64,000 nucleotides of DNA from Nitrospirota bacterium (GTDB taxonomy: Bacteria; Nitrospirota; Nitrospiria; SBBL01; JAADHI01): positions 92,235-156,234 of the forward strand of contig JAJDBX010000074.1 in the NCBI GenBank assembly GCA_029261135.1, in the 5' to 3' direction. Position numbers and translations under genes: made by a program. This document shows positions 54,653 to 64,000 of the stretch, one piece after another (the stretch's first letter is position 1; every line of letters starts with the position of its first letter). The notes under the pieces are model-generated. The model had not been told where the DNA came from, searched no databases, and saw nothing but the letters and a program-made list of their open reading frames with translations.

Positions 54653-55216
54653 ATGGATAAACTTGTCGATCTTTTATACGAAATAGGGATACTTAAAAGA
54701 GTAAAGCGAAGCGGTTGGTGGATCGCGGGTGTGAAAGATCCCGAAACCGTGGCTGAACATTCATTTCGGGCAACAATTATCGGATATATGTTGGCAATGT
54801 TGGAAGGTATAGATTCTAACAAAGTTGTCAAAATGTGCCTCTTGCATGATATTGAGGAAAGCCGTCTTACTGATATTAACAAAATCACATCCGAATATAT
54901 TGACAAAAAACAGATGAAACAGGAGGCTATATATGACCAGGTTTCTGGTCTCCCTTCTCCTATAAAAGAAGAGTTTCTCAATCTGGTTGAGGAGTTTACC
55001 GAACAAAAGACTTCCGAAGCACAACTTGCCAGAGACGCTGATTTACTTGAATGCGCTATCCAGGCAAAGGAATATATCGAGTCAGGACATGAAAGTGCAC
55101 GGGACTGGATTGTAAATATCCGGGGCCTTCTGAAAAATGAAGTATCAAAAAATATGTTAAAAACCATTGAAGAGACCTCTTCTCAGCAGTGGTGGCAAGG
55201 ACTGAAAAAATTGTAG
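54653..55216 (+). CDS. HD_3-family phosphohydrolase (YfbR-like 5'-deoxynucleotidase family)
   Basis: 187 aa. Contains KRSGWWIAGVKDPETVAEHSFRA, LLHDIEESRLTDI and ARDADLLE. Confidence 0.75.
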   Translation: MDKLVDLLYEIGILKRVKRSGWWIAGVKDPETVAEHSFRATIIGYMLAMLEGIDSNKVVKMCLLHDIEESRLTDINKITSEYIDKKQMKQEAIYDQVSGLPSPIKEEFLNLVEEFTEQKTSEAQLARDADLLECAIQAKEYIESGHESARDWIVNIRGLLKNEVSKNMLKTIEETSSQQWWQGLKKL

Positions 55217-55224
55217 GAATCTTT

Positions 55225-56517
55225 ATGGTGGATACGGTTGTAAGCAAGCATGATAGGGAGGTTATCGATGCATTTTTGAGAAAGTGCTTTCCTGTGCTGT
55301 ATGACAAACTCAGGAATTCATTCGAATACCTTGAATTTAAACAAGGTGATCCACCAATATTATCATCAGGAAAGGAAAGCGATGGTAGCTTATACATTGT
55401 CTTTAAAGGACCGGTAGAGGTAAGGACTGACAAGCTTCATGTCCCTCTACATTGTGGCAATATTTTTGGGGAATTTGAAGAAATAGGAGAGCTGTATGAG
55501 GCTGATGTTATTGCGGGAAATAGCCAAAAAGATCCTGATATTGATTTTTTTCTTGAGTGGAATATACCTGAACTTGGAATAGGGAAAAGTAACAATGTCA
55601 TTGTAATAAAGGCAAGCCCGGATGTAATAAAAAAAATAAAAGAAGACATAATTTTCTGGCGGGAACTTTGTAAATTAAAAAGTCAAAAGATCAAACGCAT
55701 TCAATGGCATTATTTTATTCTTAGAGAGTCTGAAATAAAGGACAAATTAAAGAGCTTAATCAAATATTCCTCCGATTTAGGCGATCATGCTACAGGTATT
55801 ACAGATTGTGGTGATGGATGGAAGTTGGGCATTGGTATAAAAATATTGGCAAAATTTATAGGTGCAAAACACAAAAAAAGAACAGAAAAAATTATAGAAG
55901 ACGAATGGAAAGGTAAAATAGAGAATAGCTCAATTTTTATTCCGAAGGAAGCGATGAATCCTGTACCGGAAGGTTCAGTTATTTTGTCAGGTTCCTATTC
56001 TAGTAATCCATCAGTTTTTTTAAACGTACAACTTACAACACACAAAAATATTAATGCTGATGAAGACAAAATAACTTTTAAAACGCCAAAAATGAATAAA
56101 GATGGCTTTAAAGACCTTAACTGGTATCCAGAAGATATAGTCGCTATCTTTCCAAATGGTGGGTCAGGCTATAAGCCTATTGAATATAAAGGTAAGTGCA
56201 GTTACCTGAAAATACCGAAACATAGGAACGAAATCAGAGAACTTCTCCTGGCAAAAATTGGCATTTCTGGAGAAGTGATATTTTTATATCCCTGCCTTAA
56301 TGATGAGACAAGTTTGTCTGAATACAAGTGTGTAAAGGGCAGTCTTATTGATGAAGCAGAAGTTGAAAGTATGGCAGAGAATAAAAAAAAGAAGACAAAA
56401 AATATTTTCTCCTGGTTTGGAATATCAATAAAAACTTCATCTCAGCACTTTGCCTTTATTAATTTAATGAATGTCGATTATGTCATTTGCGATCAGAAAT
56501 TGTATCGAGCAAGGTAA
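55225..56517 (+). CDS. hypothetical protein with a possible N-terminal cNMP-binding-like barrel
   Basis: The track ORF starts at 55189, inside the HD gene. An ATG at 55225 lies 8 nt after the HD stop. LYIVFKGPVEVRTD...CGNIFGEFEE...ADVIAG weakly resembles a cyclic-nucleotide-binding fold. The rest is unrecognised, and the DNA is very AT-rich. Confidence 0.4.
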   Translation: MVDTVVSKHDREVIDAFLRKCFPVLYDKLRNSFEYLEFKQGDPPILSSGKESDGSLYIVFKGPVEVRTDKLHVPLHCGNIFGEFEEIGELYEADVIAGNSQKDPDIDFFLEWNIPELGIGKSNNVIVIKASPDVIKKIKEDIIFWRELCKLKSQKIKRIQWHYFILRESEIKDKLKSLIKYSSDLGDHATGITDCGDGWKLGIGIKILAKFIGAKHKKRTEKIIEDEWKGKIENSSIFIPKEAMNPVPEGSVILSGSYSSNPSVFLNVQLTTHKNINADEDKITFKTPKMNKDGFKDLNWYPEDIVAIFPNGGSGYKPIEYKGKCSYLKIPKHRNEIRELLLAKIGISGEVIFLYPCLNDETSLSEYKCVKGSLIDEAEVESMAENKKKKTKNIFSWFGISIKTSSQHFAFINLMNVDYVICDQKLYRAR

Positions 56518-56605
56518 GAAATTGAGTTTTTATATTAAAGTTTAAGGATTGATTCATATTCCCATTTCTCAATTAAGAAGACCATTGTCATTATTTAGTT
56601 ATAGT

Positions 56606-56645
56606 GCGAATAAAAAAGGGAGAAGATCAATCTTCTCCCTTTCAA
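56606..56645. terminator. bidirectional intrinsic terminator between convergent genes
   Basis: GGGAGAAGA (56618-56626) and TCTTCTCCC (56631-56639) flank a 4-nt loop. A-run upstream and T-run downstream, so the minus transcript ends UUUUUUAUU. Confidence 0.6.
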
Positions 56646-56664
56646 ATACAAGTAATGGTTTAGT

Positions 56665-57141
56665 TTAGTGTTTCTTTGATTCCGGCTTTGCTTCAAGACA
56701 AATTCTGTGAATATAGGGGACTGTCCTCATATCTATTACATCCTCAGGTTCTCCGTATTTTCTCAAAAAACGTTCGAGTAAAAGTAATCCACCACCACAG
56801 TTTGGTTTGATGATAACGCCATCCCTTCTTAAGCATTTCCTTTTTGTTGTTCTCTCATTAAACTCAATGAGATGATATTTCCCATCCCTCTTACTATCAC
56901 GTTCACCCAAGTATTCACTCTGTTTGAAGGCTAAAATATCAGATGCAAGACGGATACAATCTTTACATTGAGTCAAATGCCGCATCTCTCTTCTGTTAAG
57001 GTGTCGTCTGGATTTGTCATAGAGTATATCCACGATTTCCTCCGGGGAAAGATGAATTCTTACGATTGAGCTGAGAAATTCCTGGCTTTTAAATATTTCT
57101 TTGACATTCTCTTTCGAAAACATATTTTCATCAATAATCAT
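56665..57141 (-). CDS. hypothetical protein with an Hx3Cx2C (zinc anti-sigma-like) motif
   Basis: 158 aa with a GGAGAGG SD. Contains RHLTQCKDC, which fits Hx3Cx2C. No adjacent sigma factor. Confidence 0.4.
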   Translation of the reverse strand: MIIDENMFSKENVKEIFKSQEFLSSIVRIHLSPEEIVDILYDKSRRHLNRREMRHLTQCKDCIRLASDILAFKQSEYLGERDSKRDGKYHLIEFNERTTKRKCLRRDGVIIKPNCGGGLLLLERFLRKYGEPEDVIDMRTVPYIHRICLEAKPESKKH

Positions 57142-57332: not shown

Positions 57333-58505
57333 TCATCCAGGTAATGTATCTGCACTGAAGGGTTCTGAGGGCATCCCGTCGATCATTAATTTTAGGTATA
57401 TCCGGTAATTAGGGAGCCGTATGAGGTCTCCGGCTGAAAAAGTCGGGTAGAATTCTTTTTCCAACACTTCCGCATCAGAAAGACCGAGCCGAAACGAAAT
57501 AATCGTTCCGGCATTACCCAAGATCGCATCTCGAATCTGAGGGTCAAGTTGTGAGAGATATTGATGTGCCAATACCATCCCTACCCTGTATTTACGCAGT
57601 TCCGAAAGCATGTTTGCCAGACTGAGCGTTGTGAAACTTTGGAACTCATCCAGGTAGATAAAAAAGTCACGACGGCTCTCTTCCGGCACCTCTGCCCGTT
57701 TGAAGGCGGCAAGACCCAAGCTGGTCACGAGTAGTGATCCGAGAAGGGTTGTCGCATCTTCTCCAATTTTTCCCTTGGATAAATTGACGAGCAATATCTT
57801 TCCTTCATCCATGATCTTTCTCAGATCAAACGAGCTTTTAGGTTGTGACAGGATGCCCGAAAGACGCGGGTTTGCTAGAAACGCCCCTACCTTGTTTTGT
57901 ATTGGCGCGATGGCCTCTTGCCGGAAGCGAGCCGTGTAGCTTTCAAATTCTCGCATCCAGAACCCCCTTACTTGCGGATTACTTACCCTTGCGGCCACAT
58001 TTTTTCTGTAGGCGGCATCTTCCAAAAGTCTCAAGATATCTGACAAGGTCGCTTGGGGCTGTTCAAGCAAAGCCAGAAGCGCATTTCTTAAAATATGTTC
58101 CAGACGCGGCCCCCAAAAATCGGGCCAGAGTTTTTTGAAGGTCTCCAGAAGCCCGGAAGCCGCCAGCGCTATTCGTTCAGGGGGTACACGTTCAAGAGGG
58201 TTAAAAAAGAGCTGTTGTGTGTTATTTGGAATATCAAAATGGATCAGATCCTTTTTCCGATGATCGGGCAGGGTCGTCATGACCTTCTCAATAAGATCCC
58301 CGTGAGGATCAAGGAGCGCAAATCCATTTCCTGATTCAAGATCACGTCGCATCATAGTTTCCATTAAAGTCGATTTTCCTGTGCCTGTTTTTCCAATGAT
58401 GTAGGTATGAGAGTGTCTGTCTATGTGTTTAATCCCAAAAAGCTTTTTCTCTGTGCGGAAGTTTGTCTTGGCAAAATATGTTACAGGGTTGTCGGATCGT
58501 GGCAT
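57333..58505 (-). CDS. stand-alone TraD/VirD4/TrwB-type P-loop ATPase (paralog of the 986-aa protein core)
   Basis: 390 aa. Walker A GKTGTGKST, Walker B FFIYLDEFQSF and RKYRVGMVLAHQ. Colinear with residues ~385-760 of the 986-aa protein (DPxGD, WGPRxExILR, GKIxxxNxSKG, GED). No TM segment. Confidence 0.7.
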   Translation of the reverse strand: MPRSDNPVTYFAKTNFRTEKKLFGIKHIDRHSHTYIIGKTGTGKSTLMETMMRRDLESGNGFALLDPHGDLIEKVMTTLPDHRKKDLIHFDIPNNTQQLFFNPLERVPPERIALAASGLLETFKKLWPDFWGPRLEHILRNALLALLEQPQATLSDILRLLEDAAYRKNVAARVSNPQVRGFWMREFESYTARFRQEAIAPIQNKVGAFLANPRLSGILSQPKSSFDLRKIMDEGKILLVNLSKGKIGEDATTLLGSLLVTSLGLAAFKRAEVPEESRRDFFIYLDEFQSFTTLSLANMLSELRKYRVGMVLAHQYLSQLDPQIRDAILGNAGTIISFRLGLSDAEVLEKEFYPTFSAGDLIRLPNYRIYLKLMIDGMPSEPFSADTLPG

Positions 58506-58652
58506 TTCTTCATGATGAAGGCTTTAGCCTCATGTTCAAAGAACGGTAAGTTGTCCTATAGCCATAGAACCCCTTCCTTTCTGTTTCCACCTGTTCACAT
58601 AAAGTAGACATGTTCTTTAAAAAAACATGAATCCCATAAAAGGAGATCTGCG

Positions 58653-59495
58653 ATGGCACAGCAAGAACTTGAAAGAAAAAAGGACAGAGTTGGAACTCAA
58701 CTCCTGATCATTTCCAAGGTTGGAAATGGGTTCCGGGTTTATTCCCCGGAATCTCCGGGGCAGTCATATATTGTGGGTTGCGGTCATAAAGGGCCGACCT
58801 GCACTTGTCCCGATTTTCAAACCCGCAATGGCGATCCGAAACAGCGATGTAGTCATATCATCGCCGTAAGAGAGCAAGTGGGGGAGTTAGAAGACATCTT
58901 TCCTCAAACGCAAGCGGAGCACCAAACCGGTGAGCAGGTGCAACAAGCCGACTCAACGGTTGCGCATCAGGGAACACAGATGCACATCAAACGAAGCGTC
59001 AGTCCGGATGGACGGATCGACTCGTTTTCGGTTTCCTTTTCCTGTGGCGTGGACATGAAGACAGTGAACGAGCTTGTCATTCATGCCACAAAGATGCTTC
59101 AGATCCAGTCTGTGATTGTCGGAAGCTTCTTGCAGAAAAAAACCAAGGAGAATGGTCAAACGACAACCAAGCCGCAAGAAACAAACGGTGTAGTACCAGC
59201 CAAAATGCTCACCATCGGCGGAATGCCGGGGAAATGGGGACAGATGCTTTTTATTAACGTGAAAGTAGATGGAATTGGCAAAGTCTTAAAGCTCTTCGGG
59301 AGCGTGAAGCAACTTGAAGGCCATTTGAGAGACTCCAACTTTCCACACCTGGCTCCGACGAGCATCAGAGAGGGAACTCGTTTAAATCACCCCTGCCGGG
59401 TCACGACCAAACCGAGCAGTGATGGAAAGTATCTGAATATCATCAAGGTCTTTCCGCTTGAACAACAAAATGGACAGGGGAGGAACGGATCATGA
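58653..59495 (+). CDS. SWIM zinc-finger protein
   Basis: 280 aa with an AGGAG SD. CTCPDFQTRNGDPKQRCSHIIAV fits the CxCxnCxH SWIM signature. The C-terminal ~170 aa are unrecognised. Confidence 0.6.
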   Translation: MAQQELERKKDRVGTQLLIISKVGNGFRVYSPESPGQSYIVGCGHKGPTCTCPDFQTRNGDPKQRCSHIIAVREQVGELEDIFPQTQAEHQTGEQVQQADSTVAHQGTQMHIKRSVSPDGRIDSFSVSFSCGVDMKTVNELVIHATKMLQIQSVIVGSFLQKKTKENGQTTTKPQETNGVVPAKMLTIGGMPGKWGQMLFINVKVDGIGKVLKLFGSVKQLEGHLRDSNFPHLAPTSIREGTRLNHPCRVTTKPSSDGKYLNIIKVFPLEQQNGQGRNGS

Positions 59496-60307
59496 GCGAA
59501 GTCATTACGGAGGAAAGTAAAGAACGGGCGGCAATAAAAAAAAGCCCCCATTACTCATACTCCAGTACGAATAAGTATCTCCTCTGCCCAGAGCAGTACC
59601 GCCTCTATTACATTGAACAACTGAGACCCAAGATTCAATCTGCCAATTTGGTCTTTGGAAAGGTCATACATCGGGTCTTGGAGCATCTCGTCATCACAGG
59701 GATAGATCCGGTGAAGTTCTTTGTGGGTGAGTGGGATAAGCTCAAAGAGGTTCCTTTGCGATACAGCAAAAAGGAGTCATGGGAAAAGCTCAGTGGTATT
59801 GGAGAAGGACTTCTTCGGAAGTTTCAAGAAGAGGCACTTCCCAAGTTAGGGAAGGTTGAGGCGACGGAAAAGCCGTTTGAGTTCAAGGTCACTGGTTTGC
59901 CCCTCCCGTTTATCGGGTTTATGGATCTCATTGCTGAGATCGAAAACAAAAGGACGGTAGTTGACTACAAGACCTCTGCTTCGTCATATGGATACTATGA
60001 GGTGGCTCTCTCAGACCAACTCACCGCCTACCAGCTTGCAGAGCCGGATGTGGAACAGGCGGCATTTTGTGTCTTGGTCAAAACAAAGACACCCAAGATC
60101 GAGTGGCATTTCAGCAGGAGGGAGCCAGAAGCACTGATTGCGTATATCGAAAAGCTTGAGTTTGTTTCTGCGCAGATAGAGGCCGGGAATTTCTACAAGC
60201 GGCCTGGCATGTGGTGCAGTTATTGTGACTACCTAATGGTCTGCATGGGAAACAAGAAAAAAGTACAAGAGACATTGGTGCAGATTAGTCCCAATACCTC
60301 TTCATAG
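59492..60307 (+). CDS. PD-(D/E)xK nuclease of the Cas4/RecB-exonuclease type
   Basis: 271 aa. The ATG overlaps the SWIM gene stop (ATGA). Contains GFMDLIAEIENKRTVVDYKTS (D...DxK), an N-terminal Cys (YLLCPEQY) and a C-terminal CSYCDYLMVC, the Cas4-like Fe-S cysteine pattern. Confidence 0.65.
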   Translation: MSEVITEESKERAAIKKSPHYSYSSTNKYLLCPEQYRLYYIEQLRPKIQSANLVFGKVIHRVLEHLVITGIDPVKFFVGEWDKLKEVPLRYSKKESWEKLSGIGEGLLRKFQEEALPKLGKVEATEKPFEFKVTGLPLPFIGFMDLIAEIENKRTVVDYKTSASSYGYYEVALSDQLTAYQLAEPDVEQAAFCVLVKTKTPKIEWHFSRREPEALIAYIEKLEFVSAQIEAGNFYKRPGMWCSYCDYLMVCMGNKKKVQETLVQISPNTSS

Positions 60308-60346: not shown

Positions 60347-60500
60347 GCACTACAGGTTTTCTCGACATCTAACATATTGATTTTTATAAGTTTCCTTTGC
60401 AAAGGTTTTGATATAGGAAAAAGGAACCTTTAAACGACAAAAGAAAGAAAAATCCTATCCCCCTGTCAAAAGGGAACCTTCTCTGTAAAATATAAACTGT

Positions 60501-62933
60501 TTAAAGGTTAATTTTATTTAAGCTGTGCGAAAAAACTTCATTTTTCGATTTCTCTAGCAGAATATCTTTTAAACCCTCCCAGTATTCTTTTATAACAGAA
60601 CGGGAAATTTCTGAGAGAATTTCATAGGCAAGCGCTGATTCAAATTTTAACCACTTTTCGCTCATTATTATCTGAGTTCTTGATGAATTTAGATCCAAAT
60701 CCATCGTGCCACAAATATCGACAATCAAAAGAATGGGTAATGGCCAGACCAAACTCACTTGGTTTTTTTGCATAGACCATGATTCAGGGAACAAGCTTGA
60801 AGGGACTTCAATGCCATGTAGGGAAATTCGAGATTTAGAGTGTACAAGGCGGCTGGAAGAATCTGATGAATCAATCCCGCCATCCTCATCAATAGTGATT
60901 GATGTTGTATCTAAACTAATTTCTTTTCCACTTAATCTAATTGCTTTCTCAAGATCATAGTTTTCATCGTCAATGGTAACGGATTTTTTCGTCATAGAAA
61001 TTTGACCTGTAGGGATTCCATGGCTTTCTAAAACAGCTACAACGGCAGAGCCAACGAATCCGACATCAGGATTATTTAACTCAACAGAAAACTCTCGGAT
61101 ATTATCATGTTCATCCCATGAATAATTTTTCAACGATGATGCTTTCAATTCCTTAAAGCTATTTTCGTCTCTAGTTTTCTTCTTAGACTTGCTTTCAATA
61201 GAAATCTTGAATGAAGGATTTGGGACGACATTTTCAACCGACTGAATGAATTGCTCTTCATCCATTTTCTTCCAAGGGTTTTGCTGCACTCTCAAAAAGA
61301 GTTTTGTCGTAGTTCCAGGTGTTTTCCTTTGGCCGGGCTTTATCCAAAAGATACTTTCTTGACCTTCTATGGTCAGGTTCAGTGGATCACTTGACTCATG
61401 AGGTTCATAAACCTTTCGTGTATCGACATCCACCGTGTCAGCAACCATGAAGCATGACAGAATACCAATGCCAAATCTTGACGTTGGCGTAAACTTTGCC
61501 TTAGATTGTGATTTTAGATCATAGAAAGCAGAAGATTTATAAAACGATGATCCAACTTTCGAGTAATAATTATCGATAACGTGTTGATCCATTCCAATCC
61601 CGTTATCCTCAACTTCAAGTATATCCTCATTATCAACAGTGTAATATTTAACTTTAATTTCGGGATCGTAGGAATTCCCCCAGCTCATCTCCATAGCTTT
61701 TCGTAATAAACAGGCATCAATGGAATTCTGTAACAATTCCCGTAACGCAACCTCTGGATCACCATATAATTTTGTACCCATTAGTAAGTCAATAACCTGA
61801 TTTTTACTTAAGTTAAATTGCGTCTCTCTGTACAAAAATTCTGGCTTTCCACCTATCATTTTCTTTGTTTCGATTTTTGAACGATTAACTTTGAAAGGAA
61901 TTTTAATCGTCAAATTGCGGTTAGAATTCTTATTATATTCATTTAGAGTCGAAAAGATGTTATTGCAGGCGCTTAGTTCCTGATCGATAACATCACAAAA
62001 TGCGTTTATGGATGATTGAATTGCAGGATGCGAGCACTTTGCATGAAATTGAATAAGGTTAGGACTGATAGTCCAAGCTTCAACAGATCTATGTTTATTC
62101 CATTCTTGAATAGATATAGGATGCCTTACAAAAAGGTGTGAGAATAGAATAGAGGGGGTTCGTTTGGCATCAAAATCAAGGAGATCAGCTAATCGTAGTA
62201 TAGCTGCGACCATTGGCAAGCATGCGAATGTATCAGGCCCACAAAGATAATTTTGGTCTAATTCAAGTACCTTCAGTGCATCTTCGTTATGACTAAAACA
62301 GATGCTGGCGAATTCAACTGTAAGGTCGGCATCCCTGTAACAAATTTTATTAACCCAGTCTCTCTGTATTACTTCACGCGCTCGGTCTGCATGAGTAATT
62401 CTAATGTAGTCAGAGATAAGATAATTCTTTGCCAATTCTGTTGCGCTGGCATTACCTTGCTGAATATAAGAGTTAATTTGATCTATTTGATCTGGTCGGG
62501 CAGCAGAAAACCGCTGAAATAGTTCAAACTCTTTTTCTTCGCGCTCATTTGTAAATTCAGGTTCTGTATCAAAATATTTTTTCCAAGCCTGAACGTCTGC
62601 TTCATCAGGTGCCATTCCTATGTCATGGAAAAAAGCGCTTAGAATAAGAAGCATAAGTTCAGGAACAGAAAGTTCTTCAATCTGCTCAGGGGATAGCAGC
62701 CGTTCCATTAACGCCAATACACGGAACAGGTGGTCACCATCATGAAGTGTAAACTCCCCCATATGCTTCAGGATAGTTTTTGTCCTTTGGAATGCATAGA
62801 AGGTCGCATCATTTATAAGCGTTAGCACGTGGCTCCCCGCAGGATCATTGTCACATTTCTCTTTTAATACGATAAATATATAGCTTTTTGCTAAGCGCGT
62901 CTGTGTTTCAGCATGCCAGTCGTCGTAAAGCAT
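60501..62933 (-). CDS. HD-domain phosphohydrolase fused to an Hsp90/GHKL-type ATPase
   Basis: 810 aa. The N-terminal HD is GDHLFRVLALMERLL...SAFFHDIGMAPDE. The C-terminal Bergerat fold is ALRELLQNSIDA, EVEDNGIGMD and SRFGIGILSCFMVADTVDVDTR, which resembles HtpG's FGVGFYSAF.VAD block. Confidence 0.7.
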   Translation of the reverse strand: MLYDDWHAETQTRLAKSYIFIVLKEKCDNDPAGSHVLTLINDATFYAFQRTKTILKHMGEFTLHDGDHLFRVLALMERLLSPEQIEELSVPELMLLILSAFFHDIGMAPDEADVQAWKKYFDTEPEFTNEREEKEFELFQRFSAARPDQIDQINSYIQQGNASATELAKNYLISDYIRITHADRAREVIQRDWVNKICYRDADLTVEFASICFSHNEDALKVLELDQNYLCGPDTFACLPMVAAILRLADLLDFDAKRTPSILFSHLFVRHPISIQEWNKHRSVEAWTISPNLIQFHAKCSHPAIQSSINAFCDVIDQELSACNNIFSTLNEYNKNSNRNLTIKIPFKVNRSKIETKKMIGGKPEFLYRETQFNLSKNQVIDLLMGTKLYGDPEVALRELLQNSIDACLLRKAMEMSWGNSYDPEIKVKYYTVDNEDILEVEDNGIGMDQHVIDNYYSKVGSSFYKSSAFYDLKSQSKAKFTPTSRFGIGILSCFMVADTVDVDTRKVYEPHESSDPLNLTIEGQESIFWIKPGQRKTPGTTTKLFLRVQQNPWKKMDEEQFIQSVENVVPNPSFKISIESKSKKKTRDENSFKELKASSLKNYSWDEHDNIREFSVELNNPDVGFVGSAVVAVLESHGIPTGQISMTKKSVTIDDENYDLEKAIRLSGKEISLDTTSITIDEDGGIDSSDSSSRLVHSKSRISLHGIEVPSSLFPESWSMQKNQVSLVWPLPILLIVDICGTMDLDLNSSRTQIIMSEKWLKFESALAYEILSEISRSVIKEYWEGLKDILLEKSKNEVFSHSLNKINL

Positions 62934-62951
62934 TTTATTACTCCTATATTT

Positions 62952-64000
62952 TTACCTCTGACTTAGCGTCCGATACCATTTTCTCTGAGGTGGGTTCTGC
63001 GTATCATCATATTTAAAACACTCAACCAGATCATCGATGGATTGAAGCACACCAAGGAGAACATGGGCAGTGATAGGTGTCCCGCTTCCAGTTTCATAAT
63101 GACTTACATAATTTGCGATGATTGCAGGTGCGTGTCGATTACTAAAGTCCGTCTGTTGTTTCCCATCCAAGACAAGGCTATTAGCCTGAAGATGAAGGTT
63201 CAGAGTGTTTTTGATTGCGTCTAAAGCATTCCCTACGGTTCTATTGTCGCTCTTAATGGCATAGTCAGGTGGCACAAGTATTTTTACCTTGGAAATGATC
63301 TGCGATAACTGAAACTCAAGATATTGCCGTACTAAAGGCGCACCAACATCTATTTGTCCTGAAGATAGGTGGCCGTGTGCTAATGTCCTCAGGCGGAGTG
63401 CGTTTTGCTGATTGGCATACACCCTTCCAGTTGGCGCTGCTCCTTGAAGCTTTTGATGATACCAACCCGGCTCGCCATTAATTCGATCAAAATATTTTTC
63501 TAAAAGGGAGTCGTGGCTCAATACGATGAATTGCAGACCATCAGCATTGGTAGGGCATTGCAGTTTTGTTCTTAGTAATTCCATCAGAGCAAATTGATGG
63601 CCACCGTCAAAACTTGAAGTTATATCGTCAAGGATAACAAAGCGTGCTGAACCTGTTTGTGTTGCTGCAGCCGCAAGAAAGATTGAGGCAGCAACGGCAT
63701 TACGATAGCTTTCAGAAAGAACCGCCCTAGCGGAAATGCCATTTTCACCATAAAAATTTTCAAGATTGAGGTCAACATTTTCACTATTTGCGGCTCGAAC
63801 AAGTTGAGGCTTCATGTCAATGCCACCTCGCATTAGGTCTGTAAATATAGCCTGATAATCAGTCTGTATCTGCGCAATTCTCTGCGCGGACAATGCTCTT
63901 TCAGCTGACCCGACGGCTAACGAAGCACTTGTTATAAAGCTGCGCCAGCGTTCTCGCCAAGCATGATGCACTGATAATTTAGCCAACACTTTTTTGGCTG
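62952..64000 (-). CDS. ABC/SMC-like ATPase, C-terminal half only (N-terminus beyond the window)
   Basis: The frame stays open to the window edge (...AKKVLAKLSV). Signature-like LSESYRNAVAASIFLAAA, Walker B/D-loop ARFVILDDITSSFD and H-loop-like VLSHD. A ~180-aa C-terminal domain follows with RQYLE ... NYVSHYE. Confidence 0.6.
   Translation of the reverse strand, partial: AKKVLAKLSVHHAWRERWRSFITSASLAVGSAERALSAQRIAQIQTDYQAIFTDLMRGGIDMKPQLVRAANSENVDLNLENFYGENGISARAVLSESYRNAVAASIFLAAAATQTGSARFVILDDITSSFDGGHQFALMELLRTKLQCPTNADGLQFIVLSHDSLLEKYFDRINGEPGWYHQKLQGAAPTGRVYANQQNALRLRTLAHGHLSSGQIDVGAPLVRQYLEFQLSQIISKVKILVPPDYAIKSDNRTVGNALDAIKNTLNLHLQANSLVLDGKQQTDFSNRHAPAIIANYVSHYETGSGTPITAHVLLGVLQSIDDLVECFKYDDTQNPPQRKWYRTLSQR

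Follow-up and report, generated by a model that had tools for sequence, protein, structure and literature searches.

The window analysed here is a stretch of 64,000 nt from a Nitrospirota bacterium (GenBank assembly GCA_029261135.1, contig JAJDBX010000074.1, positions 92,235 to 156,234 of the forward strand). Near its end, at 60501..62933 on the minus strand, it carries a gene for an 810-aa protein in which an HD phosphohydrolase domain is fused to an Hsp90-like GHKL ATPase, directly behind a gene for an ABC ATPase. The closest described systems are the HD-CE/HSP90 conflict systems. 'CE' stands for 'conflict effector', a term that Nicastro, Burroughs, Iyer and Aravind (NAR 2023, doi 10.1093/nar/gkad879) introduced for families of phosphoesterases whose predicted role in immunity is the destruction of nucleotides. 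Pfam curates HD-CE (PF24391), iHD-CE (PF24401) and wHTH-HSP90_Na-assoc (PF24410), and because it names these families the fusion counts as already curated; the earlier note on this DNA, which knew of no described system built on such a fusion, has to be corrected here, and relatives of the protein carry wHTH-HSP90_Na-assoc. The window protein has the same domain family and the same fusion as the Pfam systems, with no structural difference. Judged by its sequence it is an ordinary member, about 810 aa long, of a known, computationally predicted family, and the fusion is not new. We read it, tentatively and with a confidence a little short of even, as an autonomous single-protein conflict module, directed against phages or mobile elements, in which an Hsp90-like ATP clamp would gate a nucleotide-depleting HD-CE phosphohydrolase.

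Other described systems resemble the fusion in part. The nucleotide-depleting defences (dGTPase, Clover CloA and PUA-Calcineurin-CE-HAD) share with the predicted fusion a metal-dependent phosphohydrolase that is off until infection and then makes the pool of deoxynucleoside triphosphates (dNTPs) collapse. PUA-Calcineurin-CE-HAD and the Clover dNTPase-NTase pair were two other predictions of Nicastro et al. 2023 and were later validated as dNTP-depleting anti-phage defences. The HD-CE domain is, however, not detectably related by sequence to HD domains of the Dgt/SAMHD1/CloA type (no PADLOC dGTPase match, no PDB match), and the regulator of the fusion would be an Hsp90-like ATPase, not nucleotide ligands or a PUA domain. 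VcSduA/paraMORC3, the type I-D Shedu protein, is also a single polypeptide made of a GHKL ATPase and a hydrolytic effector. Its gene provides defence on its own, defence requires the ATPase as well as the nuclease, and the protein is a good mechanistic model for the fusion. In contrast to the fusion, its GHKL part is N-terminal and of the paraMORC type, its DUF4263 PD-(D/E)xK nuclease has another fold, and the two proteins have no sequence relation; PADLOC gave no Shedu match for the fusion. One clade of the fusion recalls PrrC/RloC and paraMORC-HEPN in lying between mod and res of type III restriction-modification (RM) operons, beside an AAA_13 ATPase, much like prrC inside its type I RM operon; a PrrC/RloC-like action has been proposed for the GHKL-HEPN fusions of such operons. 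The window copy, however, is outside an RM operon, and the effector chemistry differs. Finally, Lamassu resembles the locus through the upstream gene, which encodes a Rad50-like ABC ATPase with a long coiled-coil insert and with LmuB as its best PADLOC match, and which an effector gene adjoins. It differs in that the fusion matches neither LmuA nor LmuC, the gene order is another, the ATPase family also occurs without the fusion and the LmuB match is weak; no LmuC-like gene was found in the window's part of the locus or in the related locus L019, and Lamassu was rejected as a label with no LmuA or LmuC present. As to the literature, HATPase, Hsp90 and HD all go unmentioned in Payne et al. 2024, a paper about embedded defences, and Kaur et al. 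(eLife 2020) was discarded as a source of the name HD-CE, none of the terms being in the paper.

The fusion protein and its two halves

The fusion gene, its parts and the adjoining features are the following.

60501..62933, minus strand: HD-CE/Hsp90-like GHKL fusion gene, complete, with an ATG start, 810 aa, 100% match to database protein P0001
61971..62759, minus strand: HD-CE phosphohydrolase domain, aa 59-321 (Pfam PF24391)
61143..61823, minus strand: Hsp90-like GHKL (Bergerat-fold) ATPase N-domain, aa ~371-597 (NCBIfam HSP90 family, Pfam HATPase_c_3 and PDB profile matches)
60504..61142, minus strand: C-terminal region, aa 598-810; the secondary structure of the AlphaFold model shows a beta-rich module here and then three helices
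62934..62951, minus strand: intergenic spacer of 18 nt, with an AGGAG Shine-Dalgarno sequence at 62941-62945, 7 nt before the fusion ATG
60457..60477, minus strand: terminator-like hairpin with a T-run, 24 nt past the fusion stop codon, found by consensus scan
62952..64000, minus strand: 3' part of a Rad50/SbcC/LmuB-like ABC ATPase gene, comprising its last 348 codons and the TAA stop at 62952, and thereby the signature motif LSESY, the Walker B motif FVILDD, the H-loop LSHD and an uncharacterised C-terminal domain of ~180 aa; the end of the window cuts the gene

The 810-aa open reading frame (ORF), with the HD motifs GDHLFRV and FFHDIGM and the GHKL motifs ELLQNSIDA, DNGIGMD and FGIGILSCFMVADTVDVDTR that the earlier note had quoted, was confirmed in the translation. 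The N-terminal half matched Pfam HD-CE over positions 2-262 of the 263 in the profile (E 1.1e-54; 186.4 bits, cut-off 27) and scored 188.8 bits in isolation; the match to iHD-CE, the inactive form, was much weaker (45 bits, C-terminal part only). The predicted metal ligands of the domain are H64/D65/H68, H103-D104 and D250/D253/D255, and H181, H215 and H281 are invariant as well. All the ligands were invariant in 87 relatives (58-100% identity), and in 113 distant representatives (30-60% identity) their conservation was 93% or higher. With its metal-binding residues intact, the window copy appears to be of the active HD-CE type rather than iHD-CE, and the number of invariant residues, six His and five Asp, points to a phosphodiesterase site with two metals. 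A predicted structure of the domain reached a predicted local distance difference test score (pLDDT) of 80 and a predicted template modelling score (pTM) of 0.81.

By sequence and by fold, the ATPase half is closest to Hsp90/HtpG/TRAP1. Pfam HATPase_c_3 matched aa 393-507 (33.9 bits against a cut-off of 25), with HATPase_c also above its cut-off, and the best NCBIfam matches were 'HSP90 family protein' (95.6 bits, aa 371-597) and HtpG (81.9 bits), both to the N-domain only (profile positions ~3-215). When PDB sequences were searched with a profile of 31 homologs, the best 60 of 60 matches were Hsp90, TRAP1, HtpG or GRP94, and with the AlphaFold model in Foldseek the best 50 of 50 were Hsp90-family chains, aligned over ~480 columns that span the N and middle domains. 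These four lines of search bear out the earlier assignment of the half to an Hsp90-like GHKL ATPase, not to a histidine kinase or MutL; the Foldseek comparison was one that the earlier note had proposed, and it gave only insignificant matches for the HD half. The GHKL residues fall into motifs I (E399/N403/D406), II (D443-G445-G447), III (G488-G490) and IV (T541), and all of them were invariant in the 87 relatives and nearly so in the 113 representatives. The label of an HtpG chaperone was nevertheless rejected because the scores lie far under the equivalog cut-offs (81.9 versus 371 bits for HtpG, 95.6 versus 455 for the HSP90 family), and no full-length equivalog match was obtained for HtpG/HSP90 as the identity of the fusion. 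Thus, although its GHKL N-domain motifs and its N and middle fold are closest to the HtpG/Hsp90 chaperones, the protein differs from them in that it shows no match to the Hsp90 C-terminal domain, has an extra HD domain, is encoded by a mobile gene and is matched in sequence families by its ATPase core alone. One clade of the fusion is embedded in RM operons, and MORC/paraMORC GHKL ATPases belong to RM systems too; in the Pfam, NCBIfam, PDB and Foldseek comparisons, sequence and fold are closest to Hsp90.

Because the catalytic centres of both halves are invariant in the 87 relatives and nearly so in the 113 representatives, the two predicted enzymatic activities appear to be maintained together by selection. 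The marks of the HD-CE/HSP90 family found in the window protein are an HD-CE match above threshold, intact HD residues, fused Hsp90-type GHKL motifs I-IV and a conflict-type context. No Pfam family matched aa 601-810; the C-terminal region (aa 598-810) is probably, to judge from the model, an Hsp90 middle-domain-like (S5-type) part followed by a dimerisation tail.

The distance of 18 nt to the upstream ATPase gene, given in the earlier note, was confirmed (stop at 62952, ATG at 62933), and because the spacer is so short and carries AGGAG the fusion is probably co-transcribed with that gene. The hairpin at 60457..60477 is the likely end of the transcription unit; the scan was for a consensus only and found 5 sites where 3.2 were expected. 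The gene had also been called very AT-rich, for which the count given (17/60 G+C at 61501-61560) is exact; over the whole gene, however, the shift is moderate, not extreme, with 38.0% G+C against 44.3% for the window, i.e. 6 points lower.

Spread of the family and its facultative ATPase companion

A word-indexed search returned 2,536 relatives of the fusion; the best 120 of these were all full-length (~810 aa), 63-92% identical to it and from very different phyla. Among the sources are Methylophilus, Nitrosomonas, Acidobacteria, Vibrio, Halomonas, Desulfobacter, Kiritimatiellae and Prosthecochloris, with identities of 60-90%. An exhaustive search of 50%-identity cluster representatives gave 8,194 matches at E<=0.001 and at least 1,373 at E<=1e-30. 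Because identity is this high across phyla while the distribution is patchy, the pattern indicates horizontal transfer, a signature typical of defence genes. The family is, at the same time, rare on plasmids (5 distant matches among 72,556) and in phage and viral contigs (9 distant matches among 2.9 million viral contigs, and one fragment among phage records). The 113 listed representatives, each of at least 700 aa, which were aligned for conservation fall into two main length classes, of ~760-830 and ~1,000-1,050 aa. The longer class (P0191, P0197, P0237 and ~50 more representatives) has the HD-CE and GHKL core at aa ~50-550 in common and a different C-terminal part, and one family member of 1,384 aa carries five wHTH-HSP90_Na-assoc repeats (PF24410). 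Two fusion copies are disrupted or truncated, one with the middle of the gene replaced by other ORFs (L012:10001-12923) and one a 458-aa remnant (L074:857-2233), consistent with gain-and-loss dynamics.

The upstream ATPase is 830 aa in full length (P0279, from a contig of the same size as that of P0001), and its aa 483-830 are 100% identical to the 348 residues encoded in the window. It has a Walker A motif (QNGIGKTS), a long helical insert, an ABC signature (LSESY), a Walker B motif (FVILDD) and an H-loop (LSHD); its last ~180 aa matched no family. In the middle of the insert, at aa ~370-376, there is a CPVC motif like the zinc hook of Rad50. An 830-aa homolog from L019 matched Pfam AAA_23, SMC_N and AAA_13. 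For P0271, an 82%-identical homolog, the best PADLOC match was LmuB (E 1.5e-23, profile positions 6-592 of 611), with a modest score and with mad3 and PDC-S06 matching too, and against a profile of the AAA_13 neighbours described below ATPases of the window type scored E 1e-14 to 1e-18, i.e. as a distant member of the AAA_13-like group. A 74-75-aa gene with the motif ARRDFNQ overlaps the ATPase start (L019:2782-3006, L106:5774-6001, L108:5780-6004), both with and without the fusion. The unit in the window probably consists of three genes, the first of which, the 74-aa gene, would lie beyond the window end (>64000). ATPase homologs at 58% and 45% identity (Agrobacterium vitis, Bradyrhizobium) keep the overlapping 74-75-aa gene and have no adjoining HD-CE/Hsp90 fusion.

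To describe the neighbourhood of the fusion, 11 genomic loci (single-protein query) and 80 metagenomic loci (alignment query) were fetched, their ORFs called and the neighbours clustered. Contexts were counted over 71 non-redundant loci, 28 of which were well-flanked, with at least 3 kb on both sides, and neighbours were taken within 6 kb. An AAA_13-like ATPase was present in 8/28 and an Old-family nuclease in 6/28, and any ABC ATPase was absent from 14/28. The recurrent neighbours are AAA_13-type ABC ATPases of 750-880 aa that match the PADLOC candidate PDC-S06 (E down to 1e-121), Old-family ATPase-TOPRIM nucleases of ~590 aa that match PADLOC Old (E down to 1e-228), and type III Mod and Res; SIR2-HerA, reverse transcriptases, integrases and transposases occur as well. 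This supports the conflict-system context that the earlier note had suggested. A clade 58-61% identical to the window protein has, in at least 8 distinct loci (L055:5608-14933, L057, L065, L068, L070, L087, L088, L090), the order helix-turn-helix gene, PDC-S06/AAA_13 ATPase (~870 aa), Mod, fusion, Res. Of the by-products of the analysis, this type III RM clade and the facultative association with Old, PDC-S06 and Rad50-like ATPases hold the most interest. Beside the AAA_13/PDC-S06 ATPases that flank the fusion, DUF2130 proteins of ~420-450 aa recur (L006:1194-7664, L007:7522-11465, L029:3984-9894); DUF2130 is without a PADLOC model, and in L006 a SIR2-HerA pair lies immediately upstream.

The pair of window-type ATPase and fusion is kept only among close relatives, namely L019, L020 and six more pairs inferred from contigs of the same size. 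Where the fusion is 85-86% identical to that of the window, the gene in front of it encodes another AAA_13 ATPase in L006 and an Old nuclease in L017; a 79% relative (L010) has neither. In blastn comparisons the homology of the window to L019 runs across both the ATPase and the fusion genes, whereas that to L006, L017 and L010 covers 60622-62948, begins 2-15 nt from the fusion start codon and ends ~120-140 nt before the stop, which leaves the last ~46 aa outside the DNA homology common to these three loci. Such borders would imply recombination breakpoints at the edges of the fusion gene and a variable C-terminal tail. Solo copies of the fusion were found in Methylophilus, Vibrio and Immundisolibacteraceae, beside integrases or even ordinary metabolic genes. 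Since each gene occurs without the other, the ATPase and the fusion are not an obligate pair: the fusion is a one-gene cassette with a marked but non-obligatory tendency to adjoin ABC ATPase defence genes. The earlier proposal of a defence-like gene pair therefore does not stand as a fixed unit, given the 14/28 loci without an ABC ATPase, the ATPases without a fusion in Agrobacterium and Bradyrhizobium and the three ABC ATPase families behind close relatives; what remains of it is that the neighbourhood is conserved in close relatives, with a companion that is facultative overall. The fusion is indeed widespread without the partner, but where the partner is missing the surroundings are for the most part mobile or defence islands rather than housekeeping regions.

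An obligate multi-gene system, in which the Rad50/LmuB-like ATPase and its 74-aa partner would sense foreign DNA (ends or structures) and activate the fusion as a dedicated effector, as LmuB activates LmuA in Lamassu, with Old or PDC-S06 in the same role elsewhere, is in our view unlikely. The 18-nt spacer with a ribosome-binding site and the single downstream terminator suggest one operon, and every close relative found retains the pair, but already at 85-86% identity the ATPases in front of the fusions come from three families unrelated to one another, and the homology breaks off at the start codon. Apart from RM genes, the one kind of neighbour that recurs is an ABC ATPase (14/28 loci, in 8 of them on the same strand within 250 bp), and it accompanies many fusion clades; the other 14 well-flanked loci, however, are without any such ATPase, and the ATPase homologs at 58% and 45% identity keep the 74-aa gene and not an HD-CE/Hsp90 neighbour. 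Likewise, the window-type ATPase matches both the AAA_13-neighbour profile (E 1e-14 to 1e-18) and LmuB (1e-23), yet Old and PDC-S06 are catalogued as single-gene defence systems or candidates and the fusion has no LmuA-type match in PADLOC.

Possible action of the fusion

In the autonomous conflict module that we favour, the C-terminal Hsp90-like GHKL module would be an ATP-driven dimeric clamp or switch. It would sense an infection cue, the role of STAND NTPases in other immune proteins, and would then free the N-terminal HD-CE metal-dependent phosphohydrolase. The phosphoester compound that this domain would destroy is most likely the free (d)NTPs or some other nucleotide. The replication of the invader would be starved, and possibly that of the host too, as in abortive infection. 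The cassette, which often lands behind an ABC ATPase defence gene, may cooperate with that gene without depending on it. Nicastro et al. 2023 reportedly describe systems in which HSP90- and HSP70-related modules, as analogues of STAND NTPases and GTPases, are coupled to such predicted nucleotide-degrading effectors. The analysis establishes the domain identities, the intact and invariant catalytic centres of both halves, the horizontal spread, the mobile or defence-island context and the facultative partner, whereas we infer the defence function, the substrate and the sensing step; the family context reads as that of a conflict system because of the patchy spread, the neighbourhoods rich in defence and mobile genes and a G+C content of the gene 6 points below that of the window.

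A number of observations weigh against this reading or limit it. The HD-CE domain had no PDB relative by sequence search, and a fold search with its model gave insignificant matches only, all with E>0.1 (PPX/GppA domain III, cyclic-nucleotide phosphodiesterases, a dGTPase), which point to no particular substrate; the two-metal site would suit cleavage of nucleic acids or cyclic nucleotides as well as nucleotide hydrolysis. The full-length AlphaFold model is of moderate confidence (pLDDT 69). Full autonomy is put in doubt by the ABC ATPase of the Old or PDC-S06/AAA_13 type near the fusion in 14/28 well-flanked loci, 8 of them with the ATPase on the same strand within 250 bp, and by the clade built into type III RM operons, where most gene junctions overlap by 4 nt. 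The searchable full-text literature yielded no paper that names or experimentally tests the HD-CE/Hsp90 fusion. Of the models in PADLOC-DB v2.0.0 (2023), which include dGTPase, Shedu, Tiamat, and the HEC and PDC series, 0 matched the fusion at E<=0.01. The PADLOC search suggested in the earlier note thus came back empty, and of its question whether the system already has a name, the answer is yes for the Pfam family HD-CE and no for PADLOC.

It is also conceivable, though doubtful, that the fusion is a portable second-stage effector that plugs into several unrelated, DNA-sensing ABC ATPase defences (Old, PDC-S06/AAA_13, Rad50/LmuB-like) and into type III RM operons. Its Hsp90-like clamp would then monitor host defence proteins, as a chaperone does its clients or as a PrrC-like guard, and would fire nucleotide destruction when the first line is engaged or inhibited; a guard function of the RM-embedded fusion would be a pure analogy with PrrC/RloC. 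If true, this would amount to a modular architecture of a new kind, 'ABC-ATPase / RM + Hsp90-guard', and for the first time an Hsp90-like module would have a mechanistic role as an immune sensor in bacteria.

Rather than nucleotide pools, the enzyme might attack nucleic acids: the GHKL half would be a MORC/paraMORC-like DNA clamp and the HD half a Cas3-HD-like nuclease, acting on invading DNA or RNA as a restriction accessory or on its own. GHKL-nuclease fusions are established in RM and defence (paraMORCs, paraMORC-HEPN, VcSduA), but the GHKL half of the fusion is closest to Hsp90, not to MORC or MutL. In one clade the fusion gene is flanked by mod and res in type III RM operons whose genes overlap, and some ABC ATPase neighbours act on DNA (the Old nuclease, and the Rad50-like ATPase with its hook-like CPVC motif); in the 810-aa form itself, however, Pfam scans detected no DNA-binding domain. 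A phosphodiesterase centre with two metals would accord with the six His and five Asp that are invariant, yet the fold search with the HD-CE domain model gave no Cas3-HD match, and the curators of the family reportedly group HD-CE with nucleotide-targeting effectors. On balance we find a nucleic-acid-targeting enzyme improbable.

That the fusion is a housekeeping or stress protein, an HtpG paralog with an HD domain for nucleotide or alarmone metabolism and no conflict role, is hardly credible: relatives are labelled 'molecular chaperone HtpG' in some sources, a few copies lie among ordinary metabolic genes (L011, L111) and a weak Pfam hint accompanies the fold hint of the HD-CE half to PPX/GppA domain III, but the HtpG and HSP90 scores are far under their cut-offs (82 versus 371 and 96 versus 455 bits), the distribution is patchy with 60-90% identity across phyla, the contexts are mostly mobile or defence islands, the composition is atypical and two copies (L012, L074) are disrupted.

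If the family works as predicted for an autonomous conflict module, an Hsp90-type ATPase would be the built-in sensor or switch of an immune effector, not a folding helper, a parallel to NLR immunity in plants and animals, which depends on Hsp90. With thousands of sequences in most bacterial phyla, the family is very abundant. PADLOC-DB v2.0.0 (2023), the one defence catalogue that was consulted, has no model for it, so that genome surveys with this version miss it. The associations with Old, PDC-S06 and Rad50-like ATPases and with type III RM give concrete constructs, in which the fusion alone can be compared with the fusion as an add-on to other defences. The window copy is an ordinary family member, and its value is that of a lead rather than a surprise.

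Neighbouring genes in the window

Downstream of the fusion, at 57333-60307, lies a gene for a TrwB/VirD4/HerA-like ATPase (390 aa, minus strand; best PADLOC match mad8, E 2.5e-19). Beside it is a gene for a 280-aa protein of no known family, which overlaps by 4 nt with one for a Cas4-like PD-(D/E)XK nuclease (271 aa). These genes may be another mobile-element or defence module.

At 54653-55216, on the edge of an AT-rich island, the window encodes a small HD protein of the YfbR/HD_3 5'-deoxynucleotidase type (E 1.5e-32), which is unrelated to the HD-CE domain beyond the HD motif (8 columns aligned by hhalign). The most AT-rich stretch of the window follows at 55189-57141 (34-37% G+C), with ORFs of 442 aa (plus strand) and 158 aa (minus strand) that gave no Pfam, NCBIfam or PADLOC match. 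Together with the region from 57 to 64 kb, this stretch looks like a composite island of foreign DNA that starts past ECF-transporter genes.

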